Shown piece by piece: positions 45,890-64,000 of a stretch of 64,000 nucleotides of DNA; position 1 is the first letter of the stretch; each line of letters begins with the position of its first letter. Origin of the DNA: a virus; the IMG/VR virus record IMGVR_UViG_3300036846_000489, positions 1 to 64,000 of that record; one strand, 5' to 3'. The translations under genes were made by a program, and so were the position numbers. The notes beneath the pieces were generated by a model. That model ran no database searches. It was given only the letters and a program-made list of their open reading frames with translations, and had not been told where the DNA came from.

Positions 45890-46381
45890 ATGACTGGCAC
45901 AGAAATTGCTCTCGCGCGCACACCCCTTTCTTCTACTTCTTCTACCTCTAACAACCAAGATAATAATTACAATCCTTTTGATACCAAGAAAGGGAAGGGA
46001 AGACGTAGTGATGGAACTAATCCCAGAGCACTAGGAACCAACCCTAAAGCTCTCGGAACTAACCCAAGAGCATTAGGCACCAATCCAAAGAAAATTGGAA
46101 TTATCGTTCCGCAGGACTGGCGTCCTTCCCAGAGTGCTTGGACCTTTGCCACCAAGCTTGGATTTGGGGAAAGGGAACTTGCCCAATTCATCCGCTACAA
46201 CCGGCATAAAAGGTATCACGCATTCAAATGGCAATGGAATAAAATTTTCGTCGGATGGTGCAAGAAAATCCATCAGCGGAAGGAGGAACGGTCGGCACAA
46301 CCGACAGAGACACCGATGGGACAATTCGGCGGGTCATTGCTTGATGGGAGAAAACTCGGGATGTGGGAGACGGTGTGGTGA
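45890..46381 (+). CDS. Replication-associated protein with GTNP(R/K)AL repeats and DnaT-like C-domain
   Basis: VPQDWRPS...ELAQF..Y...W...F.GW; upstream of primase-helicase. Confidence 0.5.
   Translation: MTGTEIALARTPLSSTSSTSNNQDNNYNPFDTKKGKGRRSDGTNPRALGTNPKALGTNPRALGTNPKKIGIIVPQDWRPSQSAWTFATKLGFGERELAQFIRYNRHKRYHAFKWQWNKIFVGWCKKIHQRKEERSAQPTETPMGQFGGSLLDGRKLGMWETVW
46013..46090 (+). repeat. 21-bp tandem repeat, about 3.7 copies
   Basis: ggaactaatcccagagcacta / ggaaccaaccctaaagctctc / ggaactaacccaagagcatta / ggcaccaatccaaag. Confidence 0.85.
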
Positions 46382-48150
46382 TCGAGAAGAACCTGTTCGA
46401 CCTCCTGGATGAACACGGCATTCCCCGCCTCAAAAGCTACCAGCCCGGCTACACCGAGAAACTGATCTGCCCCAAATGCGGGGGTGGAAGAACCCGAGAC
46501 CACTGCCTGTCCGTGACCATCTCCGACGATGGCACAAACGCCATGTGGCAGTGCCACCGTGGAAACTGCGATGGCTTCTCCGGCAAGGTGTTCGTCAAGG
46601 GCGGGCACTTCGAACCAAAGCCCAAGCCTCGCCCAGCCAATCCGTTCGCCGATGCCGAGGTTCCCCAGGATCAGCCTGTTTATGCGCCGCCGTGGTATTG
46701 GGACTTTTGGGCCAACCGGCACATCGGGAAAAAGACCCTCGACGATCTCGGCATCCATTTTTCAGTTCATCCCGTCTTAGCTGACAGCATCGTCTTCCCG
46801 TATCGGTGGAAAGGGAGGCTGGTCAATCGGAAATTCCGATCCCATCCGAACAAGGACTTCCGCAACGACGCCGGGTCGCAGCCGACGCTGTTCAACGTGG
46901 ACAGCATCGATCCCAAGGAACCGCTGTATTGGGTCGAGGGAGAGATCGACGTTCTGACCATGCACGAGATGGGCTACCCGCACGTCGTCTCGTTGCGCGA
47001 CGGTGCACCGCAGAAGGTCGGCCAGGGCGACAAGCGGTTCGAGGCACTGAATACCCACGCCGACGCGCTGCACAAGGTCGGCACACACATCCTGTGTCCC
47101 GACGCCGACAAGCCGGGTGAGGCGTGGCTGGAAGAACTCAGCCGGCGTCTGGGCCGGCACAGGTGCAAGATCGTGCGCTGGCCTGCGGGGCGAAAGGATG
47201 CCAACGACACGCTCTGCATGGCCGACGACGATGAACGAAATACCATCGAGTATTGCACCTCCCACGCGCAGCGGTTTCCGCTTCAGGGCATCCGCGACAT
47301 TTCCGAGCGGGTGATCGAACGGGCGTTCACCAGAAAGCAACCCGACGTTCTGACCCTCGGGGTCCAGTCCATCGACAGCACGCTGAAGTTTCCCGCCGAG
47401 GGAAAGTTGATCGTGGTGAGCGGCGTGCCGTCCCACGGAAAGTCCACGTTCATGCGCTTCGTGACGGTCAAGACGATCCAGCACTACGAACGGAAATGGC
47501 TGGTGTTCGTGCAGGAAGACGACTTCCACGACTACGTCATCGACGTGGCAAAAATACATGCCGACAAGATGTATTCCGAGGTGACCAGGGAAGACCGTGG
47601 CGAGGCCGGCGCTTCGTTCATGAACGGCGGTCTGCGGATTTTGATGTTCGACGGCGAGCGTGATCCACCAACCATCGACACGATCTTGGAGCGGGCACGA
47701 TTGTCCATTCTTCAGGACGGCACCACAGACCTGTTGCTCGATCCGTTCAACGAACTGGAAGATGCCTACGAGCATGGCGACCAAAGCCAGACCCAGCACA
47801 TCGGCCGCACGCTGCAACGGCTCAAAGCCTTCGCCAAGGAATATTCCTGCAACGTCTGGGTCATCGCCCATCCGGCCAAGCCGTCCAACGGTGAGCGCCA
47901 TCCACCGGATGGATATTCCTGTGCCGGCTCGGCGAATTGGGCCAACAAGCCCGACCTTGGTTTTTCGGTCTGGCGTCCCGGTCCAATCGGCGACGTGGAA
48001 CTTTACGTCTGGAAGAGCCGCACCCAGCGATGGGGTAGCGCGAAGACAGTCGCGAAGGCGTGGTTCAACGCTTCGATTGGCACCTACCACACACCCACAC
48101 CGAAGGAGACCGAACAGGCACCAACAGACACACCCGGTTGGATCGACTGA
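46378..48150 (+). CDS. Bifunctional primase-helicase (T7 gp4/Twinkle type)
   Basis: Zn finger CPKC..CHRGNC; TOPRIM VEGEID, DADKPG, KDAND; SF4 Walker A GVPSHGKS, LLDPFN, VIAHP. Confidence 0.92.
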   Translation: MIEKNLFDLLDEHGIPRLKSYQPGYTEKLICPKCGGGRTRDHCLSVTISDDGTNAMWQCHRGNCDGFSGKVFVKGGHFEPKPKPRPANPFADAEVPQDQPVYAPPWYWDFWANRHIGKKTLDDLGIHFSVHPVLADSIVFPYRWKGRLVNRKFRSHPNKDFRNDAGSQPTLFNVDSIDPKEPLYWVEGEIDVLTMHEMGYPHVVSLRDGAPQKVGQGDKRFEALNTHADALHKVGTHILCPDADKPGEAWLEELSRRLGRHRCKIVRWPAGRKDANDTLCMADDDERNTIEYCTSHAQRFPLQGIRDISERVIERAFTRKQPDVLTLGVQSIDSTLKFPAEGKLIVVSGVPSHGKSTFMRFVTVKTIQHYERKWLVFVQEDDFHDYVIDVAKIHADKMYSEVTREDRGEAGASFMNGGLRILMFDGERDPPTIDTILERARLSILQDGTTDLLLDPFNELEDAYEHGDQSQTQHIGRTLQRLKAFAKEYSCNVWVIAHPAKPSNGERHPPDGYSCAGSANWANKPDLGFSVWRPGPIGDVELYVWKSRTQRWGSAKTVAKAWFNASIGTYHTPTPKETEQAPTDTPGWID

Positions 48151-49770: not shown

Positions 49771-49921
49771 ACGCCCCGTGACGCCCCTGTGTGGCCAGAA
49801 AATGCTGTAGAACACTGGAAATATCGGATAATTCCGAAACTCTGCACGACAGAAGGCGCTGGACAAACCGAAAAAATGCGCCGAGAATAATCAGGAAGGA
49901 CACGCAACCAGGAGAACGAAC

Positions 49922-50455
49922 ATGAATAAGAAGATGCAGGTTCCGTGGGTAAACCAAGCTACGTTGACCAAGGCCGAAATGGAGAAGGTTCGCACGAATT
50001 GCGAACCGCGTCGGCCAACGATGTGCCTTAATACCAAGATGGTGAAGCTCGGTGCCGAGAAAAAGGGAAGGATCGTGCGTGGAGTAAGCACCTTGAATGG
50101 GTTCGTTCATTGGTCTGAACAAGAGAAAGACCTTACGTGGCATATGTGGCGCGCGAAATTGCTGCTTCCGTATGCGGAGAAGATCGATGTCTACGATACG
50201 GACGGCAAGCAATTCACATTGCCAGCAAAGCCGCCGTTTGGTCCGGTGGAATACCGGGGGCCGTGTCGGCCACGCCGGGGCACGCCAGAGGGTGCCAGAT
50301 TGGCCAGCAAGAAATTCCAGGAAAGGAAGGCGGCCGGATTGGCTCAGTCACGGAAGAAGTATCGCAATTTGCAAGCTCCCGAGGTGATCAGGATGGGAGA
50401 GATGGAGCGGGAAAGGGAAAGCTTGCCAGAGGCCGAGCTAGTTCCTACCTTCTGA
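49922..50455 (+). CDS. Hypothetical basic protein
   Basis: SD AGGAG. Confidence 0.5.
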   Translation: MNKKMQVPWVNQATLTKAEMEKVRTNCEPRRPTMCLNTKMVKLGAEKKGRIVRGVSTLNGFVHWSEQEKDLTWHMWRAKLLLPYAEKIDVYDTDGKQFTLPAKPPFGPVEYRGPCRPRRGTPEGARLASKKFQERKAAGLAQSRKKYRNLQAPEVIRMGEMERERESLPEAELVPTF

Positions 50456-50842
50456 TCCCCTTCGGGGTGTGGTGTCCTTCCACAGAGAGCCGGGCGATCC
50501 CGTCGCTCGGCTCTCACCACATCTGGCGCGAGAAGGGGCTTGACCGCGCAAGATGAGCGAAGGCATGCTTTCCCTATCGTCGCGGGATCGCACACCTTGG
50601 AGCCAGCTATGTGACCTGCTAGCGCAGCATTATGAATGGATACGGAATTGGTGTGCTACCTGTTGGGCATCCAGCGACGCGGGTAGAAGCCGGGATAGTC
50701 TTTTCCTTCTTGCCACCACTCACGAGCAAGTTTCGGCGCTCTCAGTAGGGCCGCGTCGCGTTCTTCCCCTAGAGACAGCAGGTGGAAGTAGGCTCTGAAT
50801 ACCAAGGCACGATGTTCCCCCACCCGCATGTCCAGGTGGCGG

Positions 50843-51697: not shown

Positions 51698-51942
51698 GAG
51701 GATTTCCTGTCCAGCTTGATGTCGTGGGTGCGGTGGCCGTATGATCTACCGGTTCTTATGGCATCGACCAGTTCCTCCATCAGTTCAACAAACTCATGAG
51801 GGGGTGTGGTCGAGACCACGCGATTTTTCTTTTCTCCCGCCAGTCGATAGATCAGCAGCCAGTCACCGTCATCGCCTATTGCCTTGGCGAGAAACTGACC
51901 TACGGCATCAGCTATGAATTCATCCTCTTTGTCTTCGGTCAT
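51694..51942 (-). CDS. Cassette gene, hypothetical
   Basis: Start preceded by AAGGACACCAAATG. Confidence 0.65.
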   Translation of the reverse strand: MTEDKEDEFIADAVGQFLAKAIGDDGDWLLIYRLAGEKKNRVVSTTPPHEFVELMEELVDAIRTGRSYGHRTHDIKLDRKSS

Positions 51943-52014
51943 TTGGTGTCCTTTTCCTGTTTCCAGCGAAGTGCTGGTGCAGAGAGCCACGCCCCACGGG
52001 ACGCGCTCCCTGCA

Positions 52015-52266
52015 TCAATGCTTCGTCTCCGCAGCGTCTTTTAAGGCGGTGAGTTTGAGGATTAATTTCACTAGCATCGTCAATAGGCTCGACCGAATTT
52101 CTGCGGTGTCCTTGTCGTCTTCCCCATAATGCCCAGCAACCCATATGGCGGTTAGTTCGGCGAGAACTGCGCCCTGTATGGCTGAGGACTTGCCAGCCAG
52201 GATCGGCTTGATCTGACCGATCAGAGCGATTATTTCCTCTACGTCTTTCTTGGCGAAATCGGTCAT
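52015..52266 (-). CDS. Cassette gene, hypothetical
   Basis: LAGK...IQGAVLAEL.A.WVAGH; stop lies in type B element. Confidence 0.65.
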   Translation of the reverse strand: MTDFAKKDVEEIIALIGQIKPILAGKSSAIQGAVLAELTAIWVAGHYGEDDKDTAEIRSSLLTMLVKLILKLTALKDAAETKH

Positions 52267-53309
52267 CAACGCACCTCGTAGTGGGAACGGTTGGACTTGA
52301 AGCTCTTCCGCTGTTCCTCGGTAGCATTGACCAGTGTGTCCGCGATCCAGATCGACCGACCCGTGGCGTAGTTTCTCGGGTGTCCCATGCGGATGTGGAA
52401 CTGCGGACTTGCGTGGTGCCCGCCCAGACCTTCGCTCCGCTCCCGATGACCGCGTGCCAGAATAGCCGTGACATACGGCTCACTAAGCACCCGGTCGTAG
52501 TGCGGGATCGGCGGCTTCCGGCTTTTCATCCTGGCACGTTGCAATTTCTCCGGTGGCCGAACTGTCTCCCGATCCACCCCGCGCGTGGCGAGGATCATCA
52601 GGCAACAGATAATCGGGTCACCGATATTGCAGCTTGCCGCCTCGTGGGCCGATTGTCCGTTGTTCTGCAAGGCACGGAATTCATCGTCGGCGACGAACCG
52701 CAGAATAGACGGTGCCACTTGGGAAATATGGTCAACGCCAAGTTCCGGTGGCGGCACCATGAACATGCCACGGTCACCGATTACCAGGAGTTGCTGGTAA
52801 CCGAGCGTCAAGGGCTGAAGCTCGCAGACTTCGAAGGTCGTGTCGGAAGGACGATTGACCAGATAGACCGCTATCGCCTTGGTTTCTGGCAACACCACTG
52901 GCTGAGGGCCTGCGCCCTTCCAGATGAGGTTATGATCCCAAGTGTGGTAGCAAATCCACGGGTCGGAAAATGGGAAACCCAAGGCTCCCATATTCCACAT
53001 CTTCCCGCCACGCTTCGCGCATTCCGAGATGACCAAGTTCGGCAAGTGACCGAAGTCGATGACCCTGCCGGCTGTCACCGCATCGCGGCACCGAAGGGAG
53101 ATCAATTCAACCTCCCTCTGTGTCGAGGCGTATTCACGGCTCTCGGGAAGCAACCGCATGTTCGATGACTGGAAACCGGTGACGCGAAAATCGAGCACCG
53201 CGTCCCGCATCTGCGTGACGGTTGGTCTCCACTCCATGTCCAGCGACATAGTTAGCTCCTGCCCGAAGATCACCTGACCTTCGGGAGTTCTCATTAGTCT
53301 CGGTTCCAT
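52266..53309 (-). CDS. Cassette gene with C-terminal HxRxGH motif
   Basis: Conserved start sequence; HASPQFHIRMGHPR. Confidence 0.75.
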   Translation of the reverse strand: MEPRLMRTPEGQVIFGQELTMSLDMEWRPTVTQMRDAVLDFRVTGFQSSNMRLLPESREYASTQREVELISLRCRDAVTAGRVIDFGHLPNLVISECAKRGGKMWNMGALGFPFSDPWICYHTWDHNLIWKGAGPQPVVLPETKAIAVYLVNRPSDTTFEVCELQPLTLGYQQLLVIGDRGMFMVPPPELGVDHISQVAPSILRFVADDEFRALQNNGQSAHEAASCNIGDPIICCLMILATRGVDRETVRPPEKLQRARMKSRKPPIPHYDRVLSEPYVTAILARGHRERSEGLGGHHASPQFHIRMGHPRNYATGRSIWIADTLVNATEEQRKSFKSNRSHYEVR

Positions 53310-53379
53310 TTGGTGTCCTTCTCTGTGTCCCCTGGTCGGGGCGAGGACAGCACCGATGCCGGCGCTGCCTTCGTCCAGA

Positions 53380-53997
53380 TCAGCGAATATCAACCTTTTT
53401 CGCCGCGCCTTGCTCAAGAGCGGCTTTGAGTATCTGTTGGGCGGCATCGCGTTCTTCGAAGGTTGGCTCCCTTTCCGGCAGAACCTCGGCAAAACTTCCC
53501 ATTATGAAACTCTGCGGGTCAGAGGTCTTTTCATCCTTTACCCCGGTGCATTTGCCTTTCGCGTTTCTTACGACTTCGGCTTGTGCCACGGCGGTAAGGC
53601 GTTCACCGGTATCGTCGTTGCGCCATATGATCTGTGCTATGACGACTTCTTGGCGATCTTCCCGTTGGCTCGGCATGACCTCGGGATATTCTGGGTCCGG
53701 TTCTCCTGGCTTGCTGCTCGCAATCCAGGCTTCGCCGATGAAGGCGACGGCGAACCCGTTGTCGGCTATACAGATGAGCCGGGCCATTTCCCGGTGTCCG
53801 CGTTTTTCCTTGTCGTCGTAGTTGTTCATTCCGCCGACACCTATCGGGGTAACTCTATGGGCGGCATGAACCACGAATAGCGGCATAAGGTGTCCTTCTT
53901 TGGTGATACACCGCTTGGCATATTCTAGATCAAGCCGAAGTTGTTTGGCATAATCGAACTTTCCCTTGGCGATGTTTGGTCCGGTTTTTCTCGGCAT
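53380..53997 (-). CDS. Cassette gene, hypothetical
   Basis: Conserved start sequence; EAWI...PSQREDRQEVV; TGA inside element. Confidence 0.75.
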   Translation of the reverse strand: MPRKTGPNIAKGKFDYAKQLRLDLEYAKRCITKEGHLMPLFVVHAAHRVTPIGVGGMNNYDDKEKRGHREMARLICIADNGFAVAFIGEAWIASSKPGEPDPEYPEVMPSQREDRQEVVIAQIIWRNDDTGERLTAVAQAEVVRNAKGKCTGVKDEKTSDPQSFIMGSFAEVLPEREPTFEERDAAQQILKAALEQGAAKKVDIR

Positions 53998-54070
53998 CTG
54001 GTGTCCTTCCTGTTCTCCCCTGGTCGGGGCGGTGACAGCCACGGAATATCCTTGGCTGCCCCCGTCTGGA

Positions 54071-54235
54071 TCAGGGCAAATACCTCTCAGCGACGTTCTC
54101 GCGCTTAATGAACTTCAGTAGGGCTGAATAGAATTCTTCCAGCCGTTGCTCGCCGTCCTGTTGCGACAGCCGTTGTTGCCAATGCTCCAGGAAATCCCAG
54201 GCATTGATCAACGCTCTTTCCCGGTCATAGAACAT
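54071..54235 (-). CDS. Cassette gene, hypothetical
   Basis: TGA inside element. Confidence 0.5.
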   Translation of the reverse strand: MFYDRERALINAWDFLEHWQQRLSQQDGEQRLEEFYSALLKFIKRENVAERYLP

Positions 54236-54458
54236 GAGCGGCCGCCAGCAGTAATCCAGCGACAATTCCGACCACCAGGAACAGGCTGAAGCCGCCCTGT
54301 CCTGGCCGTTCCCGATCCCGCCTTCTCTCGGTGATTTCGATGTTGACCACCACGCGCCGGGGCGGCCCGCCTGAAGGCGGGGGAGGATCGTTGTGGAAGG
54401 AATTGCCGTCCAGTAAGTAGTCGAATGAGCCACGCTTCGGCTCCTTGTTCTTCAGCAT
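54225..54458 (-). CDS. Small membrane-anchored protein
   Basis: C-terminal hydrophobic segment. Confidence 0.5.
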   Translation of the reverse strand: MLKNKEPKRGSFDYLLDGNSFHNDPPPPSGGPPRRVVVNIEITERRRDRERPGQGGFSLFLVVGIVAGLLLAAAHVL

Positions 54459-54685
54459 ATGCCCAACTCCTTCTTGGTCCGATCAACCAGATTTTCCCAC
54501 TCCTTGCAGGCATCTTCCAGCCAGTTGATTGACTTGGCCGATCCCTGAAATTCGTAGGTATCGCGATCAAAGTGAAGACCGTTGAGCACCTCTCTTGCCG
54601 CCGCTCTCATCGAACAGGCAACATCATACATCAATTGCTTGTTCGCTTTCATAGCGACGGCCTGATCTTCAGTTCTTTTCGGCAT
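54452..54685 (-). CDS. Cassette gene, hypothetical
   Basis: Conserved start sequence. Confidence 0.6.
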   Translation of the reverse strand: MPKRTEDQAVAMKANKQLMYDVACSMRAAAREVLNGLHFDRDTYEFQGSAKSINWLEDACKEWENLVDRTKKELGIC

Positions 54686-54790
54686 GGGTTTGGTGTCCTT
54701 CTCTATTCCCCGACCGACTGGTCGAGGCGACAACAGCACCGCGCAAGGCGGGCTGTTCCCGTCAGGATCAGCACGACAGTCTGGCGACCG

Positions 54791-55402
54791 TCAGTGGTAT
54801 CTCCGGTGGTTGCCGTCGGCGGACCAATTTACTTCGTGCCAGTCCGCGACCGGCCCAGGCACGGTCAGAACCGGCACGGCCAATGCCCCGATGATCCCAG
54901 CGGACGCCCTGCCCTCTACACCGGCCAGGACGATCAGCGTGCCACGAGTAAGGAGCGTGGCCTTTTGGTTCGGGAACAGAACCGGCTCCTTGGTATTATC
55001 GAGGCGATCAAGGCTGCTTTCGAATTCGGCAATTCCCTGTTCCCCCAGGCGGGTTGCCAGGGTGACAAGGGCGCCGTGGCTGTCAGCTTGAAGAATGAAA
55101 GACGCCATGGTTGACCACAGTGCTGCCCGGTCTTCCAGGTCGGTATTATTTATCTCTGGGACCGGGTCAGACCACCGAAGCATGTCGCAGATCATTCCCC
55201 GGTTGGGGGAGGCAAATACCACATGCCGCCCATAGCAGGCCGGGAGTGCTAGTTTCCCAGCTTCCTCTGAAGCGATGGCATCGACAACCTCCTGCAAGGT
55301 CGGAATACAGCGACGCAGTATTCGCTTCGTGCTCGGCTTTTGCGCGCGGCCTTTCACCACATCCTCTAAGGTCATGGTGGCGACGTGTTCTCCTAGTGTC
55401 AT
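54791..55402 (-). CDS. Cassette gene, hypothetical
   Basis: Conserved start sequence. Confidence 0.65.
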   Translation of the reverse strand: MTLGEHVATMTLEDVVKGRAQKPSTKRILRRCIPTLQEVVDAIASEEAGKLALPACYGRHVVFASPNRGMICDMLRWSDPVPEINNTDLEDRAALWSTMASFILQADSHGALVTLATRLGEQGIAEFESSLDRLDNTKEPVLFPNQKATLLTRGTLIVLAGVEGRASAGIIGALAVPVLTVPGPVADWHEVNWSADGNHRRYH

Positions 55403-55479
55403 GGGTTGGTGTCCTTCTCCGTCCTCGACTTCTGGTCGAGGCGGCGACAGCGCGGCTTCCCGTGCTGTCTCCGTCCAGA

Positions 55480-56637
55480 TCAGGGTCGTCTCCTGATGAC
55501 GTCATAATCGTCGTGAACAACGAAGCCGCGTGAGGCGTCGCCGCGTTCATGCTCCGGTCGCCACCAGCGTTTGCCGCCACAGTCCGAACAGACCCAATTA
55601 TCCGGATCGTCCGGCCCAGCGTCCGGCCACGGCAGCCATTTCGGTGGACCGTGGTTCGGTTCGAAGTTGTGGACGCACCCGGCGATCCTGGAATAATCGC
55701 GGGCTTCCTTGTTGTGGCAGTAGTGACCACGAACTTCGTGCCGGCGACGCGGCACAGCGTCACCCGCCGGGGTGCCGATCAGCCTTAAGGTCGGCACCGG
55801 ATCGATCTCTATGGTCACCGTGGTATGTGCCATGTAGGCCCGGAACTTGCCGCTGATGAAGCCAGGGGCATTCGGCAGAGAGTTCCGGTAGCTGGTCAGC
55901 GACGGCCGGTTGAGCATCAGCAGGATCGCGATGATCGTCCGAAAGTCGCCAATCGTGCCACGTGCCATGGACGCCATGCCGCCGTCAGCGGTCCATTTAT
56001 GGTAGGATGGATGGGCCGGATTGAGCGGCGTCTGTTCCATGACGTTGAACTCTCGCAGCACGCGCCGTTCGTCGTTGGTCAGGTTGTCCCAGGTTGATCC
56101 CCACATAAGCATGTCGAGGCTCATCCGAGAGCACCCGCACAGACGGGCGAATTCCAACTGATCGTCTATCGGCCATTCGGTTCTTAGTCGATACTGCATT
56201 CCGGTCACCTGCGGGTCAGTGACCGGGTTGGCCACCGTGCCGCCGCAGATGGTATTGATCCGATTATGGTCGATCAGATACCCGACCGTGTGATCGGCAC
56301 TGTCAAGTTCGCCATACCAGCCGGTATTTTCATACCGTCCTGGATCAGCGTCGCGTAGCACCTTCCAGTAAATCCACGAAGGCCACTCTATCCAGGTGAC
56401 CTCGAAAGGTGGTCTGGCGAAGCCGTGTTCCCGCACCAGAAGTGAAGGAATATCACGCACGACCTGGGCAATACGCTCCGCGGCCCGCTCGTCAAAGACG
56501 AACTTATGGGCGGCACGCATGGAGCGTTGAAGCATGTCCATGGTTTTCGGATGGACGAACCGCTCCTTGGCCGAAAACTTATGAGCCAAAAAGCGGTCAG
56601 CCAGTATTGGCCCCCGCTTGGTAGGTGTTTTGGCCAT
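55480..56637 (-). CDS. Cassette gene with HEVRGHY and Cys-rich C-terminus
   Basis: Start-sequence variant; RRRHEVRGHY, CSDCGG, HERGDAS. Confidence 0.75.
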   Translation of the reverse strand: MAKTPTKRGPILADRFLAHKFSAKERFVHPKTMDMLQRSMRAAHKFVFDERAAERIAQVVRDIPSLLVREHGFARPPFEVTWIEWPSWIYWKVLRDADPGRYENTGWYGELDSADHTVGYLIDHNRINTICGGTVANPVTDPQVTGMQYRLRTEWPIDDQLEFARLCGCSRMSLDMLMWGSTWDNLTNDERRVLREFNVMEQTPLNPAHPSYHKWTADGGMASMARGTIGDFRTIIAILLMLNRPSLTSYRNSLPNAPGFISGKFRAYMAHTTVTIEIDPVPTLRLIGTPAGDAVPRRRHEVRGHYCHNKEARDYSRIAGCVHNFEPNHGPPKWLPWPDAGPDDPDNWVCSDCGGKRWWRPEHERGDASRGFVVHDDYDVIRRRP

Positions 56638-56712
56638 GTTGTGTCCTTCTGTTCTCCCCGAGCATGTCTGATCGAGGCGGAAACAGCCATGCTGCTTCCG
56701 TCCGGATCAGGC

Positions 56713-56738
56713 AAAGAAAAGGGGAGCCGAAGCTCCCC
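56713..56738 (-). terminator. Intrinsic terminator (UUCG loop)
   Basis: On - strand: GGGGAGC-TTCG-GCTCCCC-TTTTCTTT. Confidence 0.8.
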
Positions 56739-56769
56739 ACAAAGTCTGGGTCGGATATTTTCTGCCGGT

Positions 56770-57408
56770 CTACGCCGACCGACGCCGCAACAGGGTCAGG
56801 CCGATCAGGCCCATCCCGAGGATCACAAGCGAGGCAGGCTCCGGCACGGCCGTCGCCGAAGCACTGATGTCACCCGCAAAGCTGGCATTGAAGGCGCCAA
56901 TTGTGCTGCCGTCCAAGGCAAGGGTGGGCAGCAGATTGGTGAACGCCAGATTGAACGAGCTTGGGGGCACCAACTCGTTGGCCGGAATGACGTTGCTGGC
57001 CAACGTGAGGCTCTCCGGGGGGTTGTTGACATTGACTGTCAGACCCGGCCCACCATTTGCCCCAAAGGCGGCATCGGTGAACGTGCCAGAGAGGAAGTTA
57101 CCCGTGCATCCGGCAGCACTTGAGATACAGAAGCTTCCCGAGTAATGCTGGATGATGTTGCCCGCTACCGTGATTGCCGCATCGATAGAATGCGCGGAGA
57201 GGGTCATCATGGCGCCAGGAATGGCACCGAGAATACCGCCGCCCAGCAAAGCTAGCTGGTTGGTGTAACTGATATTCGTCACGGTGCCATTGTCGGTCGC
57301 TACCACGGTATTCGTCGTGGCCTCCTGAGCGAAAGTCGTAAGCAAGGCGGCTTCCGCTACTGTCGGCAAGGCCACGGCGATGGTGGAGGCAAGCAAAAGT
57401 GCCTTCAT
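56770..57408 (-). CDS. PEP-CTERM sorted secreted/surface protein
   Basis: Signal peptide MKALLLASTIAVALPTVAEA; C-terminal VPEPASLVILGMGLIGLTLLRRR. Confidence 0.9.
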   Translation of the reverse strand: MKALLLASTIAVALPTVAEAALLTTFAQEATTNTVVATDNGTVTNISYTNQLALLGGGILGAIPGAMMTLSAHSIDAAITVAGNIIQHYSGSFCISSAAGCTGNFLSGTFTDAAFGANGGPGLTVNVNNPPESLTLASNVIPANELVPPSSFNLAFTNLLPTLALDGSTIGAFNASFAGDISASATAVPEPASLVILGMGLIGLTLLRRRSA

Positions 57409-57518
57409 CTGGTTTCCTTTCGGGTTGGTGTGAACACTCAGTCTCCCCGGCTTTGCTGGCCGAGGCCGGAACGCCCGCCACAGTTTCCTGTGGGGACGCT
57501 CCGGTCAAGGTCAGATTT

Positions 57519-57728
57519 CTACCGTCTCCGGTGGCTGGCATCTATAGGTTCGATGTCGGTCTCAACCTGACGGGGATCGCGGCCCTGTTGTATCCGCGAT
57601 ATCCTGGCGGGCAGGATGATATCCCGATTGCAGTCGTCGCAGCACCGGCCATGGTTGATCGGCTCCGCGTTGTTCCCGAACCGGGTGTATGGCCGCCCGC
57701 AGATCGTGCAGGCTCCGTTCTCATCCAT
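57519..57728 (-). CDS. Small zinc-binding protein
   Basis: CTICG...GNNAEP...GRCCDDCN. Confidence 0.7.
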   Translation of the reverse strand: MDENGACTICGRPYTRFGNNAEPINHGRCCDDCNRDIILPARISRIQQGRDPRQVETDIEPIDASHRRR

Positions 57729-58224
57729 CCTTGTTCTCCTCTTCCTTGCGCGGCATTCCGGAAAGAAGCTGACCGTAGGTGTGGAGCACCTCGGTCACCG
57801 GCTTGCCGTCTCGGAAGAACGTGATGGTTCCCGCCGCCTCTGAGGCGCGAGAGTTGCCCCAGGCGTCGAACTCGGCACGATCCATCCAAATGATGTTCCG
57901 ACGCAGCCATTCGACGGTGACCACCGGATCGACCGTGTAGTAGCCTCCCGGCACGTCTTCGTCTTCGACCTCTTCGCCCACAACCACACCGTTGCCGGCC
58001 ATTGGCTGGTCGGTGCGGAATGCGCAGAAGAAAAAGTGCATGGTTGGTTTCAGCAAGCCTTCCTCGTCCACGAACATCACATCTCCAGACGGGAACCGAA
58101 AGGCCGCTTCGATCCAGCCACCGATATAGTCACCGACGGTAGGAAGCTCGCCTTCGGCACTTTGTATGCGATATTCGACCTCACGGATTTCCCGCTTCAC
58201 GGCATCAATGAGAATTGCCTTCAT
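57721..58224 (-). CDS. DUF3846-like protein
   Basis: MKAILID, IGGWIE, FVDEEGLL, AGNGVVVG. Confidence 0.65.
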   Translation of the reverse strand: MKAILIDAVKREIREVEYRIQSAEGELPTVGDYIGGWIEAAFRFPSGDVMFVDEEGLLKPTMHFFFCAFRTDQPMAGNGVVVGEEVEDEDVPGGYYTVDPVVTVEWLRRNIIWMDRAEFDAWGNSRASEAAGTITFFRDGKPVTEVLHTYGQLLSGMPRKEEENKDG

Positions 58225-58308
58225 GGGTATTTGGTGTCCTTCCATTCAGTTTCCCCAGGCTGGCTGAGGCGAGGACAGCCACCGGCCTGAGCCGGCGCTG
58301 CCTTCGTC

Positions 58309-58491
58309 TTAGTCAGGGTCTATCGGCTCGTCGTGATCGTAGTTCGGATCGGTCAGAACCTCTGGCCGGAACGCGGCCAGCTTCTCCTTTTCGCATTTCC
58401 CGCACATGTATCCGAGAGGAATTCCCCTCGCATCCAGTCCGACCCACGGCCACTCGCCGCTGCCGCACGGGCATTCAGTCAGCATCGCCAT
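58309..58491 (-). CDS. Small zinc-binding protein
   Basis: CPCGSG...DARGI....C.KC...FRPEVL. Confidence 0.65.
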   Translation of the reverse strand: MAMLTECPCGSGEWPWVGLDARGIPLGYMCGKCEKEKLAAFRPEVLTDPNYDHDEPIDPD

Positions 58492-58778
58492 CATGGTTCT
58501 CCGTCGTGGCCAACGGCTTTCTGGTCCGCCACGCCATCGACGGTGCGATGGCGTCCGGCGTATTCCCACTGGACCTGATGGAAGCGTTCGATATTCGCGA
58601 TGTCACGAATATCCAACTTGAACCCCAGAGCCAAGTAGATTAGTTCCAAATCGCCTTGGTTGAGCCGGTCGAGGTTGGGCAAGGTGGCATGAGGGATGCC
58701 ACAGTGCTCAATGATCCACTCACGGATGACGCGGACCAGTTCGTATTTGTCTGGCCGCATCTTGGGAGGAAGCGACAT
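58491..58778 (-). CDS. Hypothetical protein
   Basis: TGATG-coupled to upstream minigene; SD GGGAGG. Confidence 0.55.
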   Translation of the reverse strand: MSLPPKMRPDKYELVRVIREWIIEHCGIPHATLPNLDRLNQGDLELIYLALGFKLDIRDIANIERFHQVQWEYAGRHRTVDGVADQKAVGHDGEP

Positions 58779-58894
58779 CACGCTGCCTCCCGAGGGTCTT
58801 CAGTATTTATCGGCATTTGGTGTCCTTTCCAAAGTCCTCGGCGAACTGGCCGAGGCGGCGGTAGCCACGACAAGCGCAGCTACCCCCGTCCAGG

Positions 58895-59113
58895 TCAGAT
58901 CAACTTGATCTCGACAGAAGTGACCGTGTAGGGGCCGTTGCAGCCAAGGCCGGGAGAGCCATACACGGCCTTCCCGTGGGTCAGTTCCCAGAAGCTTTTC
59001 TGCCGAGCCTGAAGGTAGACATCATCAAGCTCACCTTCGCAGATCGACTTTGTCTCCCAGGTCTGGCCCTTGGCAGCGGTGCCACGAAGGGTGCAGTTGT
59101 AGAGGCGGATCAT
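58895..59113 (-). CDS. Cassette gene, hypothetical
   Basis: LTHGKAVYGSPGLGC.GPY; TGA inside element. Confidence 0.6.
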   Translation of the reverse strand: MIRLYNCTLRGTAAKGQTWETKSICEGELDDVYLQARQKSFWELTHGKAVYGSPGLGCNGPYTVTSVEIKLI

Positions 59114-59445
59114 GCCGGCCTCCTTATGAACTCTCGGCCCGGCCTGGACCGAATACCATGGATCAGATCGTCATGTTCTGTAGCGAACCGAACCATGGCA
59201 CGGCGAAGGTCCAGCATCACGTCGCAGATTTTCCGCAGGCGATCCACCTCTTTCTGATCCATCGGAAACTCCGACAACTGCGCCATGGCATCACAGAGGT
59301 TCGATACCATCGCGTTCATCCGGCCCAGGATCAGGTCTTTCTGATCGGTCTCTTTCTGGTATTTCGCCATCAACAAAGCCATGCTGGAACGCGCTTCTCG
59401 CGCTTCAGCCTTCGCCTGTTGCAGCGGTGTAGGGTTTCGAGGCAT
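59110..59445 (-). CDS. Cassette gene, helical
   Basis: Conserved start sequence. Confidence 0.6.
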   Translation of the reverse strand: MPRNPTPLQQAKAEAREARSSMALLMAKYQKETDQKDLILGRMNAMVSNLCDAMAQLSEFPMDQKEVDRLRKICDVMLDLRRAMVRFATEHDDLIHGIRSRPGREFIRRPA

Positions 59446-59520
59446 TTGGTGTCCTTCCGTTCTCCAGCGCAAACGCTGGTGCAAAGAGCCACGGGCCATT
59501 GCTGACCCGCGCTCCTTGCA

Positions 59521-59991
59521 TCAAGGTTTGTTTGCTTCTCGCGCTATCCGCTCGTCTTCCTTCGTCGCATAATGAGGAAGTTCGCGCAGAGAAAGGCGGG
59601 GCCTTCCAGGCTTTTTTGGCCCAGGTGTTCTTTCCCGTTTCTTTTCCGGTGCTCGCTTTCCCAGCCTATGGGCTTTGGTAGGCGCAAAAAGTGTGAGTTT
59701 GCCGTAGACAAACCGTCCTTCGGTATCGAATTGACGAATGACTTCTGGCCAGTGGTTGACGTATCTCAGCCAGTGTTTTGCCCCTTCTTCTAGCACATAA
59801 GCTCGGTATTTATAGACTATCGCTGCCCGAGCGCCTTCGCGCATTAACGAACGAGCCCAAGGGCAGTCGCACGGATCGTTGGGGCAGGCGCCCTTGATAT
59901 CAACAAGAAGAGCCACGACAGGTCTATTCTTCTTCGCGTCCACTATGGGTAGTCCTAGAAAGGCTGGATGGTTTCTCATCATGGATGCCAT
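59521..59991 (-). CDS. Cassette gene, hypothetical
   Basis: Conserved start sequence; DPCDCPWARSL. Confidence 0.7.
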   Translation of the reverse strand: MASMMRNHPAFLGLPIVDAKKNRPVVALLVDIKGACPNDPCDCPWARSLMREGARAAIVYKYRAYVLEEGAKHWLRYVNHWPEVIRQFDTEGRFVYGKLTLFAPTKAHRLGKRAPEKKRERTPGPKKPGRPRLSLRELPHYATKEDERIAREANKP

Positions 59992-60084
59992 TTGGTGTCC
60001 TTCTCTGTTTCCTGGTCCGGGTCTGGCCCAGGCGGAAACAGAAACGGCCCCCGAAAGGGCCGCTCTGCTACCGTCACGGTCAGA

Positions 60085-60351
60085 TCATCCCCGCCGCGTG
60101 ATGGTCACGTCGTATCCCTTGTCCACGATTTTCTGGATCAGAATTTCCAGGTCTTCGTGATCGTCGGGGAAAAGCATGTGCAACAGCTTTTTCACCTTGG
60201 CGGGACGCGGCTGGGCGTTGCCGTTCTCGATCTGCGACAGATAGCCATTGGACAATCCGGCACGTTCCGCGAGAGCGGTCTGAGACAAACCGCGTTCCTC
60301 ACGGGCTTGCCTGATCTTTTCGCCCAGGTCGGGGCTGTCGAAATTCACCAT
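60085..60351 (-). CDS. XRE-family HTH regulator
   Basis: KIRQAREERGLSQTALAERAGLSNGYLSQIENG. Confidence 0.88.
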   Translation of the reverse strand: MVNFDSPDLGEKIRQAREERGLSQTALAERAGLSNGYLSQIENGNAQPRPAKVKKLLHMLFPDDHEDLEILIQKIVDKGYDVTITRRG

Positions 60352-60353
60352 GG

Positions 60354-60569
60354 TCAACCTCCTGTCTTCCACCATCGGCCGTGATCGCCCAGAGTGTATT
60401 TCTGGCCGACCCCGACGCCGAGGCCAAAGCCGAACAGAAGATGGCATCTCAGGCACATCATTGCCCACGGCCCCCGACGGGTTGCTCCATCAACAAAGTC
60501 GGTGTTGAGGGAGCCGCGGCAGATGGCACAGGCAACAGGCTTGCTGCCTTGCCAGTAAAGCTTGGTCAT
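60354..60569 (-). CDS. Small zinc-binding protein
   Basis: CAIC...FVDGAT..GPWAMMC..C...G.GLG.G.GQKY. Confidence 0.7.
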   Translation of the reverse strand: MTKLYWQGSKPVACAICRGSLNTDFVDGATRRGPWAMMCLRCHLLFGFGLGVGVGQKYTLGDHGRWWKTGG

Positions 60570-60654
60570 TTGGTGTCCTTTCCGTTTCCCCCGATCCGCT
60601 GATCGAGGCGGTGGCAGCACCGCACAGCGGCGGGCTGCCCCCGTCCGGATCAGA

Positions 60655-61209
60655 TCATTCCATCCAGAAACAATTATACCGTTCGCGTTTCGCCATCCGG
60701 CACTTCAGGTTGTTCGCCTCGGCGATCCCTCGCAGATAGGCGAACCACTTCGCACTGGTCTGACCCGTGTGATCGCTGAGTTCCTTTCTCGAAACCCCCT
60801 GCGGCCGGCGAGATTGCTCGACTGCCCAATCGACGAACCCGGCGGGCAGTTTGGAGAGGCTGGGACCGCCCTTGATCTCCGGCCCCCGGTATTCCCCAGG
60901 CTCGACTTCTTCCGGCTTGGGAGAAGCCTCAGCGGCCTTCCTGGCAGCCTTCTTCGGCGCCGGCGCTTTCTTCGCGGTCGGTGCCGCCGCTTTCTTCTTC
61001 TTCGCAGCCTCGATACGCACGACGTTGCTTCCTTCATCGTCAGGAAGCGGACGATCAATCAGGCACCACTTGCCTTCAGCATTCTGTCCCGGCATGTGGT
61101 CGGCACCGAGCAGACGCAGACCGGAGCGCTTGAACTCCTTCTCCATGTCTTCCTTGCTGTCCCATGTCCGAGTTTGTGCCTCGACAATGGTCATGCGTGT
61201 AGCGGCCAT
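60655..61209 (-). CDS. K/A-rich protein with DUF3489-like winged helix
   Basis: AKKAPAPKKAARKA; RRPQGVSRKELSDHTG. Confidence 0.6.
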   Translation of the reverse strand: MAATRMTIVEAQTRTWDSKEDMEKEFKRSGLRLLGADHMPGQNAEGKWCLIDRPLPDDEGSNVVRIEAAKKKKAAAPTAKKAPAPKKAARKAAEASPKPEEVEPGEYRGPEIKGGPSLSKLPAGFVDWAVEQSRRPQGVSRKELSDHTGQTSAKWFAYLRGIAEANNLKCRMAKRERYNCFWME

Positions 61210-61319
61210 GAATGTGTCCTTCTGTCCGTGGTGGAAATTCCCGGGACTGGCCCAGGCGGAAAAAGCGTGGGGCAGAGGTTTCCCCCTGCCCCGAGTTGTT
61301 TCCGTCACGGTCAGTCAGA

Positions 61320-61739
61320 TCAGGCGCGCTTGCGCACTGCGATCTTGGTCAGCTTGAACACCGGCTTGCCGCCAGAGACGCTGTAGGCGAGGCCGTTGCT
61401 CGTGGCCAACCGTTCTACCCATGGCCGCCACGCCACTTGGTTCTGTCCGGCTCGGCGCGCCAGCATGGCCCGCGTTACCCCTCCCGGACTGGACGCCATC
61501 TCCAATACCATCTTCGCGAAATCCTTCGGCAGGATGGTATCGTTGACCGGCGGCATCGGCGTTCTGGCTTTTCTCGGCGCTCTGGCTTTTCTTTCTGCCC
61601 GAGGCTTCCGAGCCGACTTCTTCGCTTCCCGGCCCGGTTTCGGGCCTTGACGCCCCCCGGCCACTACCTTGAACTTCTCTGGCACCGCAGCCATGCGGGC
61701 TGAGGCGCTGTTCTTTTTCTTGATTACGGTCTTAGCCAT
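61320..61739 (-). CDS. Basic protein with DUF3489-like winged helix
   Basis: K/R-rich N-half; MASSPGGVTRAMLARRAG. Confidence 0.6.
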   Translation of the reverse strand: MAKTVIKKKNSASARMAAVPEKFKVVAGGRQGPKPGREAKKSARKPRAERKARAPRKARTPMPPVNDTILPKDFAKMVLEMASSPGGVTRAMLARRAGQNQVAWRPWVERLATSNGLAYSVSGGKPVFKLTKIAVRKRA

Positions 61740-61850
61740 TGTCTTAACCCTCTTGTTCGAAGACGCACGCCCGCAGTCGGGACGTGCCCCCGGCATACTG
61801 GCCGAGGCCGCAGCACCACCACGGTTTCCCGTGGGGTGCTCCGGTCCGGG

Positions 61851-62036
61851 TCAGGTATCGAAGTCGCGGCGATGCGCCGCTAGGATTTCCGCGATTTCCT
61901 CTGATGGGATCGGCTCGGCCCGATAGAGGATATCGATGTCCGGCACTTTGCTGATGATCATCCGGTAGCCGGGTGGCATTTTCTCCAGCAACATGAGAAT
62001 GGTTGCTGCCACGTCGGCATTTTCATCGTTTACCAT
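61851..62036 (-). CDS. Cassette gene, hypothetical
   Basis: SD AGGAG; TGA inside element. Confidence 0.55.
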   Translation of the reverse strand: MVNDENADVAATILMLLEKMPPGYRMIISKVPDIDILYRAEPIPSEEIAEILAAHRRDFDT

Positions 62037-62328
62037 CCGTTTCTCCTTGCCCTAAAAAGCGAAAGCTGAGACCGTGATTGCCGTCGTTCTCCCCGACAAA
62101 GGATATCGCTGGATGCCCCTCGATCAACAGAAGGTCTTCGTAGAAGCTGTCCCATTCGTCGATCACGGTATCCATCTCTTCCCCTTCTTTCGGGTAGTTC
62201 TCGGCTATGTAGGCGTCGAGCGACATCTGCCGAGCCAATAATACGGCGTTGCCTTCTTCCTGGGCATTCACCCGGATCGCTTGCATGTAGCCTTCGTCTC
62301 CTATCAGGATGACGGTGTAGGGTTGCAT
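62023..62328 (-). CDS. Cassette gene, acidic
   Basis: Conserved start sequence. Confidence 0.6.
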   Translation of the reverse strand: MQPYTVILIGDEGYMQAIRVNAQEEGNAVLLARQMSLDAYIAENYPKEGEEMDTVIDEWDSFYEDLLLIEGHPAISFVGENDGNHGLSFRFLGQGETDGKR

Positions 62329-62400
62329 TTGGTGTCCTTTCTCCCGAACCATTCTGGCCCAGGGAGAAACGTCGTCCGCAGACGACGCTTCCCTCACAGG

Positions 62401-62652
62401 TCAGGCTTCTTGGGGTTCGCCAAACAATTCCTTCCACATCTCGACCGTGGAGAACTGTTCGACCAGCTTCTTCGCCTCGTCCTCTGGCTGCGGCTCTATG
62501 CTCATGGTTTCGTAGCTCTTGACGAAGAGGTAGAACCGGGAGCTTGCGGTGCGATACAGGATCGCATGATCCCAGTGGAGATACTGGCCGAGGTCGCAGA
62601 TCGGCTTTCCCTTATCCGTATCGTAGAGAACGCCGTCGATTATTTTCTGCAT
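62401..62652 (-). CDS. Cassette gene, small protein
   Basis: KIIDGVLYDTD...LYRT....FYL...EA...FGEPQEA. Confidence 0.7.
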   Translation of the reverse strand: MQKIIDGVLYDTDKGKPICDLGQYLHWDHAILYRTASSRFYLFVKSYETMSIEPQPEDEAKKLVEQFSTVEMWKELFGEPQEA

Positions 62653-62735
62653 TTGGTGTCCGTCCTTCTGTCTCCCGTGCCAACCACTGGCCCAGGCGAG
62701 GACGGCCACGGTTCCCCGCGCCGCCTTCGTCTTGG

Positions 62736-63032
62736 TCAGATAAGTGGTTTCCATCCACCCCATGGGGGAAGCTCTTCGCCCCACCGTTTCTTCGGCTTCA
62801 CCCTCTTGCTGCGTGCGGTCACCGCCCGATCATGGGCGGCTCCCAACGCGGCATCCGACATTGGTTTCTCTTTCGCCCGAGACCAGCTATCGCTTGGCCC
62901 CACACGAAGCCGAACCTCTGGCACGCTTCCATAGGGCAGACCCTTCGCCTTGGATTTCCGGTTGGGATTTCCCTGACGAAGGAACTTCCTGCCCTTCGGA
63001 TACGACCAGTTAATCCGAGACTTTTTCTTCAC
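62736..63032 (-). CDS. Basic hypothetical protein
   Basis: GTG start; TGA inside first element. Confidence 0.45.
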   Translation of the reverse strand: MKKKSRINWSYPKGRKFLRQGNPNRKSKAKGLPYGSVPEVRLRVGPSDSWSRAKEKPMSDAALGAAHDRAVTARSKRVKPKKRWGEELPPWGGWKPLI

Positions 63033-63198
63033 TCGGAATAGGCTCGAATATGACCGACCACTCGGGGTTTGATCCTTCCGGGTTGCATCTGATTACGATC
63101 TGCTCTCCGGGAGAAAGGTCGTCGAGAAACTCGACCACCCGCTGAATGATGGCGAACCTTGGTTCTTCGTATTCGCGCTTGTTGGCGACTTCTTCCAT
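63010..63198 (-). CDS. First gene of early operon, hypothetical
   Basis: Start preceded by GAAGGACAGACACATG. Confidence 0.55.
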   Translation of the reverse strand: MEEVANKREYEEPRFAIIQRVVEFLDDLSPGEQIVIRCNPEGSNPEWSVIFEPIPSEEKVSD

Positions 63199-63199
63199 G

Positions 63200-63880
63200 T
63201 GTCTGTCCTTCCGTTCACACTCGTGCTCTGTCTTGGGGGCTTGCAACCCTCGGCAACCTTTCGGCTGACGGCGACATTCCGACCGACCCCCGTAGGGGCC
63301 GGGCGGTGAACAGAGGTTAAGGACACACCAAATTTTCGTATGAATACAACCGAGACTGTTTCGCCCTTCCCGCCCGCAAGATCGCCTCACGGCTACCCTT
63401 ACGACTTGTTCTCAGGCTAGGCTGTATCCACACGCCCGTATCCATTCACAATGCTGGCTTACACGCTGACGCCAGCAGACATCCGACAACCCTGCTCACG
63501 CCCACCGGGCGTTTTTCTAGGTGTCGGTGTATCTACTGTGTCAGCCAGAGCGGGGCGCTCTTGGCAGGCTTACAAGGATCGCGCTCTCCCGGTATTCCCA
63601 ACGCGCATTGATCCAGGGGGGTTTATGTTGCTGCCCATTTCGCCTTGCCAGTCTGATACCCTTTGCGACCTCTGTTGAGGTCGGGCCTTCTGGGTGGCAC
63701 TATGGCGTGGCCGTGGTCCGCTCCTTGACACACTGTCGGCCAGCGTGTCACCTCGGACACCGTCCACTTGCACCTCGGAAGTTCTTTCCTCGCACGCTTG
63801 CAGCGCCCCATCTTCACCTGTCAAAGAACCCGCCGGGGTCGAAGGCGGGGCGGCCCGCCGCCCCTTTTCCTCCCGGCCAT
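63200..63880 (-). ncRNA. Long structured 5' leader / candidate ncRNA
   Basis: No SD-supported ORF; long imperfect stems (e.g. 63466-63546, 63301-63366); lies between promoter and first gene. Confidence 0.55.
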
Positions 63881-63886
63881 TTTAAG

Positions 63887-63915
63887 ATCATAGCAAATTT
63901 TACCAGGTTTGTCAA
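63887..63915 (-). promoter_or_regulatory. Near-consensus sigma70 promoter with extended -10
   Basis: On - strand: TTGACA-17 nt-TATGAT, with TG one base upstream of the -10 (TGcTATGAT). Confidence 0.85.
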
Positions 63916-64000
63916 GGTGGAGGATGCGCGGCGGTGGCGCCGTTCGCCGGTTTCCATCGTTGCTCATGTCCCAGGCGACACGCGACCCGCGAAACGATAA

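Follow-up and report, generated by a model that had tools for sequence, protein, structure and literature searches.

Here we report that a 28-nucleotide (nt) element in the leader of a phage early operon is antisense to the start regions of the early genes, is retained in related phages, and has changed in step with their start motifs. The element lies at 63,306-63,333 of the stretch analysed (the window), which comprises positions 1-64,000 of a 75,088-bp IMG/VR phage genome with direct terminal repeats (record IMGVR_UViG_3300036846_000489; G000 below) that is present in soil metagenomes and whose host is a soil bacterium. Its + strand reads GTGAACAGAGGTTAAGGACACACCAAAT and its - strand ATTTGGTGTGTCCTTAACCTCTGTTCAC; on the leftward RNA (AUUUGGUGUGUCCUUAACCUCUGUUCAC) it is the antisense of the standard start region (GRRAACAGAAGGACACCAAATG) of about 16-20 early genes. 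On the strength of predicted folds, we give about an even chance to the view that the element is a cis clamp on the first start region of the operon, one that would withstand the shuffling of genes through the start motif they all share.

The complement is imperfect, as the element carries two insertions relative to the consensus start region, one of 3 nt (GTT) and one of 2 nt (AC). When paired with 23 early start regions, the 28-mer gave a mean RNAduplex energy of -19.1 kcal/mol, which lies 3.6 standard deviations from random windows (random genomic 28-mers against the same 23 starts, -10.7 +/- 2.3 kcal/mol). Four of 1,500 random 28-mers were equally good, presumably because they are themselves the antisense of genuine starts. 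Shuffling the element 1,000 times never produced a value of -19.1 kcal/mol. The element is a real, better-than-chance antisense of the early start regions. Its sequence and - strand antisense orientation read as they had been given in the initial annotation of this DNA, as do the seven start regions quoted there (53,307; 53,995; 56,635; 59,989; 61,213; 61,737; 63,205). The start region of gene 61,739 (61,737-61,760, - strand; GAACAAGAGGGTTAAGACAATG) has the same GGTTAAG insertion that separates the element from the consensus, and the element may have descended from a start region of this kind.

Upstream of the element on the - strand we find a near-consensus sigma-70 promoter (63,915-63,887; 11 of 12 consensus matches), with a -35 box TTGACA at 63,915-63,910, a 17-nt spacer containing TG, and a -10 box TATGAT at 63,892-63,887. 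Judging from these boxes, the transcript should start near 63,880, and the leftward early operon would then open with an untranslated, strongly folded leader of ~680 nt (63,199-63,880, - strand), for which the full-length minimum free energy (MFE) is -313 kcal/mol. No open reading frame (ORF) with coding signal was found in 63,199-64,025, the neighbouring gene at 64,026-64,727 is divergent, and no + strand promoter was found at the leader region. The - strand promoter and the orientation of the element together place it ~550 nt into the ~680-nt leader and 107 nt before the first AUG (63,198). The earlier claim that the segment sits on a transcribed strand agrees with this promoter, from which we infer transcription of the leader with the element.

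A search with the large terminase (terL) returned 41 related loci, the closest of which, G001, has a terL 80% identical. When the G000 and G001 leaders were compared by blastn, the sole match was the element (25 of 26 nt, plus a 1-nt insertion); outside it the two leaders are unalignable and a global alignment is uninformative. The G001 element is also opposite in strand to its sense reading. It belongs to an early operon whose first AUG follows 144 nt further on, and in which TTGAACAAAGGAC.. or GAGAAAGGACACCAAATG opens the genes. G004, L128, L245 and L136 were added by degenerate-pattern scans and k-mer screens, so that the element is kept in six phages (with G000 and G001), 93-182 nt upstream of the first start codon. 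L245 was the one new contig from a scan of one metagenome. The pattern AGAGGTTAA(N)GGACAC gave 54 loci, only G001 being real; an exact 14-mer scan of IMG/VR for AAGGACACCAAATG gave, among the matches listed, mostly chance singles and brought up unrelated phages with the same start motif; and a search for relatives through the neighbouring 233-aa protein found none. Two loci with terL ~74% identical gave no test of the element: G002 has another layout, with short leaders and GCACACA..AGGAG starts, and a k-mer screen of G003 showed no standardised start array. Sequence comparison thus indicates that the element is under selection, because it is the sole leader match to G001, recurs in six phages, and tracks each phage's start motif. 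The leaders themselves are ~500-530 nt in L128 and L245, counted from a TATAAT promoter; for G001, G004 and L136, in which no promoter was mapped, at least ~600 nt upstream of the first ATG were folded. A TTGACA(A/G)NTG motif recurs within the leaders (G000 at 63,800-63,830 on the - strand, G001 twice, L128, L245 and L136) and could represent extra promoters or an operator.

The start motifs and the elements vary together. In G000 and G001 a start motif AAGGAC(AC) goes with an element GUCCUU. L136 has the motif ACAGAGGACACC (GAGGAC) and the element GUCCUC, an A-U pair replaced by G-C, and G004, L128 and L245 have the motif ACAGAAAGGAACA (AAGGAAC) and the element GUUCUUU, in which one more U answers the one more A of the motif, and a C>U substitution leaves a G.U pair on the operon strand. 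Compensatory change between the segment and the start motif of relatives, named in the initial annotation as a check, was looked for and found: pairing is kept across three start-motif classes with matching element variants, in a small sample of six sequences, about four of them distinct. Soil variants (~95% identical) add a single substitution in the element, T>C at 63,307, by which a U-A pair of the helix becomes U.G, and carry many changes in the flanks at 63,235-63,261 and 63,345-63,409. In a cross-phage energy matrix every start-motif set was bound best by the element of its own class, with margins of 0.1-1.2 kcal/mol. The 3' flank of the element beyond CUGU also fits the phage's own first start region (GUUCAC/GUGAAC, UGUUCAA/UUGAACA, CUGUUG/CAACAG, CUGUA/UACAG). 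In G004, L128 and L245 the sense reading is without a GGA core (AAAAGAACA), a loss that neither a decoy ribosome site nor a DNA motif should tolerate; on the operon strand the change is just G-C to G.U. The loss of GGA from the sense reading in three phages, with G.U kept on the operon strand, points to selection on the operon-strand RNA, and the covariation pattern as a whole favours RNA pairing on that strand.

The predicted partner in cis is the start region of the first early gene (63,193-63,220, - strand), with GUGAAC at 63,218-63,213, AAGGA at 63,210-63,206 and AUG at 63,198-63,196. In MFE folds reaching from the element to the first start codon, the element pairs with the first start region in all six phages, over 17-25 bp. 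The helix spans about -20 to +5 and in every phage pairs at least two of the three Shine-Dalgarno (SD) GGA bases together with the A of AUG; in G000 there are 23 predicted pairs, which run from -22 to +5 relative to the start codon. The helix is retained, at 12-23 bp, when the complete leader is folded, and the expected number of pairs (15.8-21.2) can be set against means of 3.8-12.9 in shuffled-element controls. With the start region omitted, the CU-rich anti-SD part of the element is unpaired in five of the six phages; being free before the start region exists, it could start the pairing. The local stem originally drawn around the element (63,301-63,313 with 63,356-63,366) does exist, as 5 + 5 bp with an internal loop; it is outside the MFE fold, and by eye no counterpart was seen in G001.

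Based on these folds, we suggest the following course of events. Host polymerase would start at the promoter near 63,900, and the CU-rich middle of the element (CCUUAACCUCU) would stay mostly unpaired until, ~100 nt on, the first start region emerges and both zip into a bulged helix of 17-25 bp. This helix would bury the SD GGA of the first gene and the A(U) of its start codon and close off the variable, structured insert between the two sides, and ribosomes would be kept from loading at the 5'-proximal cistron for as long as the helix stays intact; RNase III might cut it, for instance, or a competing RNA open it. Because all early genes share one standard start region, the complementarity of the element to the remaining genes would follow, and the clamp would work whichever gene recombination puts first. 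The 5' half of the element and the adjoining leader have a second co-evolving complement at the 3' end of the operon (see below), which could compete with the clamp or mark a processing site. Both the fold in vivo and its effect on translation are inferred here from models of this kind.

Several observations weigh against a clamp on the first start region. Maxima among the shuffled-element controls are high (16-20 pairs), because the pairing sides are CU-rich on the one hand and GA-rich on the other, and the real element exceeds the maximum of its own controls in two of the six phages and not in the other four. The fold energy of the G000 segment is ordinary (z = -1.3), that of G001 being better (z = -2.7). 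As a partner of the element, the first start region ranks 2/16, 9/13, 8/13 and 3/9 among the start regions of its own phage, and predicted binding of the element to the consensus start region is at least as strong as to the first. For the conserved, invariant 5' half (UUGGUGUG), the first start regions of G001 and G004 are poor partners, and the consensus CACCAA suits it better. The first genes seem to differ between G000 and G001 by eye, and a special need to control the first cistron is not evident. At the level of transcription, RNA-library contigs from one groundwater metatranscriptome run span only 63,337-63,461 and 63,700-63,800, outside the element, and are strandless.

A second complementarity involves the leader and the far end of the operon. 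We sought same-strand complements of each leader in its own genome for the three complete genomes (G000, G001 and G004), and in all three the top complement lies at the 3' end of the early operon. In G004, leader positions 60,684-60,703, on the element, match 3'-end positions 70,994-70,975 (20/20, E 4e-5); in G001, 32,794-32,810, covering the 5' half of the element and its flank, match 46,189-46,173 (16/17); and in G000 the match is ~100 nt upstream of the element, 63,456-63,436 with 50,625-50,645 (20/21). The G000 leader segment (63,436-63,456, - strand; 21 nt) has one mismatch, which is G.U on the operon strand, and its partner (50,625-50,657, - strand) follows directly after the stop codon of the last ORF, with CCGUAUCCAUUCAUAAUGCUG pairing to 63,456-63,436; for the adjacent CACACCAAUU, the 5' half of the element and a nearer GUGUG are both possible partners. 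Co-folding of the G001 sequences extends the pairing to ~37 bp around a 35-nt hairpin. A terminator (11-bp stem, U run) stands 24 nt after the 3' partner in G001, and a 15-bp hairpin with a U7 tail, missed by the pattern scan, ~20 nt after it in G004; no terminator was found near the 3' partner in G000. The paired sequences vary across genomes and agree inside each (flanks AGGGAUC, ACC and AUU), and both mismatches are G.U on the operon strand. Such a match would reflect either real pairing of leader and trailer RNA or an inverted repeat in the DNA, the copies of which are homogenised by gene conversion.

The fit of the element to the consensus, which is at least as good as its fit to the first start region, makes action on further start regions possible, and the initial annotation had proposed a master antisense RNA for the whole array. 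In that case the leader, or a stable fragment processed from it, would pair with many early starts, along its own RNA or in trans, and shut early translation; we think this unlikely, while noting that the mean duplex energy over 23 starts, the free anti-SD part, the very stable folding of the leader, and the suitability of the 5' half for CACCAA(AUG) are all consistent with it, as is the finding that the best partners in G001 and G004 are downstream genes with CACCAAAUG. There is, however, one element per transcript for ~20 start regions, and the first start region, which the same RNA gains only ~100 nt further on, will usually win. The element has no promoter or terminator of its own flanking it on the operon strand in G000, G001 or G004 (the lone terminator-like match near the element in G004 is a weak hairpin plus the element's own U-rich tract), which speaks against a separate RNA; nor is there any sign of processing, though processing from the leader is possible. 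It had further been argued that the start sequences are conserved because they pair with this single RNA, and here the unrelated phages bear on the question. Five of these in IMG/VR (L035, L110, L084, L056, L018) have 4-20 copies of AAGGACAC, in one orientation and a few nt before ATG, most of them following a TATAAT promoter as CGAAAGGACAC..ATG, and no proteins common to them and G000 were detected in the stretches compared. This start region is thus, by its sequence, used widely, past this phage family. In those phages with 16-20 standardised starts, opposite-strand 8-mer copies number 0 or 1, which is the chance level; since they standardise the start with no comparable element seen, standardisation does not need a leader element, and that explanation for the conserved start sequences is not supported. 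The leader-trailer pairing could itself be the main function, as a site of RNase III processing or stability, as a means of clamp release, or as a reset of a polymerase-travelling leader RNA for termination at the operon end. RNase III processing sites formed by pairing are known from rRNA operons and lambda sib. This we hold to be rather improbable: the top complement falls at the operon 3' end in every complete genome, on the element in two of them, with terminators a short way further in G001 and G004 and with genome-specific flanks that match inside each genome, yet the partners are 10-13 kb apart on a translated mRNA, the main G000 match is off the element with no terminator found nearby, the comparison covers only three genomes, and a gene-converted inverted DNA repeat would look identical. 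A more elaborate version, which taken as a whole seems to us distinctly improbable, makes the element the hub of a timing circuit: it would clamp starts until the far end of the operon is transcribed, the 5'-proximal start first and possibly other identical starts as leader RNA builds up, and would then be neutralised or cut by the co-evolving complement 20-24 nt before the terminator, coupling the translation of ~20 early genes to completion of the transcript. As a variant included in that judgement, the complement would strip leader RNA riding on the polymerase and restore termination exactly at the operon end.

Two further readings do without pairing on the operon strand. The element might be a feature of the DNA with no RNA role, namely a start-region cassette boundary in inverted copy, left by or serving recombination that shuffles early genes; the promoter-stem-loop repeats reported for T4-type phages would be a parallel. 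It would agree with this that early genes differ among relatives and their boundaries are conserved, that sense copies of the start motif lacking a start codon lie past the operon end (G000 50,478; G001 46,395), and that the GGTTAAG insertion is common to the element and the start region of gene 61,739. We nonetheless regard it as very unlikely, given that no serine or tyrosine recombinase is encoded, that contigs from other samples are without joints at the element, and that position relative to the first start codon is conserved; moreover, the C>U, G.U-compatible changes preserve pairing of the RNA at the cost of sequence identity, a selectivity not expected of a DNA site or a recombination substrate. 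A site-specific inversion or integron-like system, considered separately, was rejected, no recombinase being encoded. The other reading, already raised in the initial annotation, turns to the + strand, where a rightward look-alike (a sense decoy, small RNA or small ORF) would soak up ribosomes or a factor that binds start regions. Terminator-like hairpins with T runs on that strand (63,498-63,522 and 63,847-63,873) and a 26-codon ORF from 63,340 could be taken to suit it, but the + strand promoter it would call for was not found at the leader, AAGGA is separated from the ATG by 14 nt, G001 lacks the ORF, neither G001 nor G004 conserves a terminator on the opposite strand, and the sense copy has no GGA core in three phages; we give it hardly any credence.

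Between the element and the first start region, at 63,220-63,283 (- strand), the G000 leader contains a sub-threshold match to twister-P1 (RF03160), which covers the full model and reaches 32 bits (E 2e-5 for 251 nt), the gathering score being 67.2. Within this twister-like domain a loop change CCC>UGC and a 3' change GGG>GCA occur together. Three bases are missing from the UAAA linker, a soil variant alters a consensus A (63,242), and no twister-P1 match was found in the leaders of G001, G004, L128 and L136, so that judged by its sequence the domain is probably not active. Apart from this match, the Rfam search of the leader gave only a chance snoRNA match.

The small leftward genes form a block from 63,198 to ~50,650, with further leftward genes at 64,768-67,177. 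AAGGACA(C) sits 3-9 nt 5' of ATG in 16 leftward genes, from 51,942 to 65,381, 12 of which carry GGACACCAA; ordinary AGGAG sites, in contrast, serve the rightward structural genes. In the window the array with the standardised start region extends over 51,942-63,210 (- strand) with 15 start-associated copies, often a hairpin followed by GRRAACAGAAGGACACCAAATG, and a sixteenth copy of the motif is at genome position 65,393, past the window end. Most standardised starts are preceded by GRRAACAG and by a GC hairpin. The + strand of the early region has just two copies of AAGGACAC, one at 49,896, where it serves a + strand gene as start region, and one at 63,319, in the element. The first early ORF (63,010-63,198, - strand) encodes 62 aa of no known family and is by eye unlike the first gene of G001. 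Pfam and PHROGs searches of ten early proteins gave no matches, nor did blastn of 58,000-64,000 against a phage GenBank collection.

Additional features of this region deserve mention. A perfect start region (AAAGGACACCAAATG) at 58,775-58,827 (- strand) opens a mini-ORF of 12 codons, the stop of which overlaps the GTGATG start of the next gene, and which looks like a coupling leader ORF. Some 200 nt beyond the operon end, a stretch at 50,450-50,560 (- strand) in G000 and 46,300-46,410 in G001 is alike by eye in both genomes, and ends in the start-motif sense copy without a start codon described above.

Sequestration of a phage start by an upstream sequence of the same mRNA is known from the T4 lysozyme gene (e), which is silent on early transcripts, from the translation-inhibition structure of Mu mom, and from the lambda N leader, which has an RNase III site; in systems of this type the choice of transcript, processing, or a helix-opening factor decides whether translation occurs. 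The cis clamp proposed here resembles them in that an upstream stretch of the transcript would pair with SD and start codon. It differs in having a variable insert of 93-182 nt and a leader of ~500-680 nt (and in being read from sequence alone), in that the masked site is one copy of a start region common to ~20 genes, and in that the masking element has a second co-evolving partner at the operon 3' end. The c4 antisense RNA of P1 and P7 is encoded in a leader and blocks a ribosome-binding site of its own operon, and is thus similar in placing a regulatory antisense in the leader of the operon whose ribosome-binding site is the predicted target. In contrast to c4, a processed 77-nt RNA with two short loops and one target gene, the element shows no sign of processing and its complement is one long bulged stretch; c4 (Rfam RF01695) had no gathering-score match in the window and none at E<=1 in 63,100-64,000. 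T4 RegA, a protein repressor recognising the start regions of many early mRNAs, would be the functional analogue of a master regulator, the candidate here being an RNA and not a protein.

A similar arrangement of motifs has been described in Cluster K mycobacteriophages, in which many non-structural genes have the SAS/ESAS, an SD-containing motif, a few nt ahead of their ATG, in many cases preceded by an inverted repeat; the original description noted that each genome also has one inverted SAS, for which it had no explanation (PMC3203893). SAS function was still termed unverified in a survey of 188 genomes from 2025 (PMC12699233). The likeness consists in a start motif in one orientation with a single opposite-strand copy untied to any gene start; the sequences are unrelated (a 13-bp consensus GGGATAGGAGCCC compared with GRRAACAGAAGGACACCAAATG here) and the hosts belong to another phylum, so this is analogy and not homology. 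In the Cluster K phage Anaya (L250) the inverted SAS is at 34,871-34,883, in a 385-bp gap between gp96 and gp97, downstream of the last SAS gene and in the same rightward direction of transcription. It sits at the far end of the array, which rules it out as a leader element in Anaya; the copy comes after the last SAS gene and not in a leader, so the parallel is loose. Pairing of 5' and 3' ends over a long distance governs SD access in type I toxin mRNAs (hok; aapA1, PMC6733600). Those mRNAs measure a few hundred nt and code for one toxin, whereas here the ends are 10-13 kb apart.

Many phages equip their early, fast-evolving accessory genes with one identical start region. The element family offers a testable role for a single inverted copy of a start motif, as an RNA partner that compensatory change maintains and that has a constant place in the leader. 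Should leader and trailer really pair as RNA, the ends of a 10-13-kb phage mRNA would be joined, and we know of no precedent for such a link. If the cis clamp is true, a regulatory helix survives gene reshuffling, with every gene bringing the same start region. Among the systems compared, the nearest in mechanism would be ordinary cis sequestration, and the nearest in architecture, by analogy, the SAS/ESAS of the Cluster K phages.

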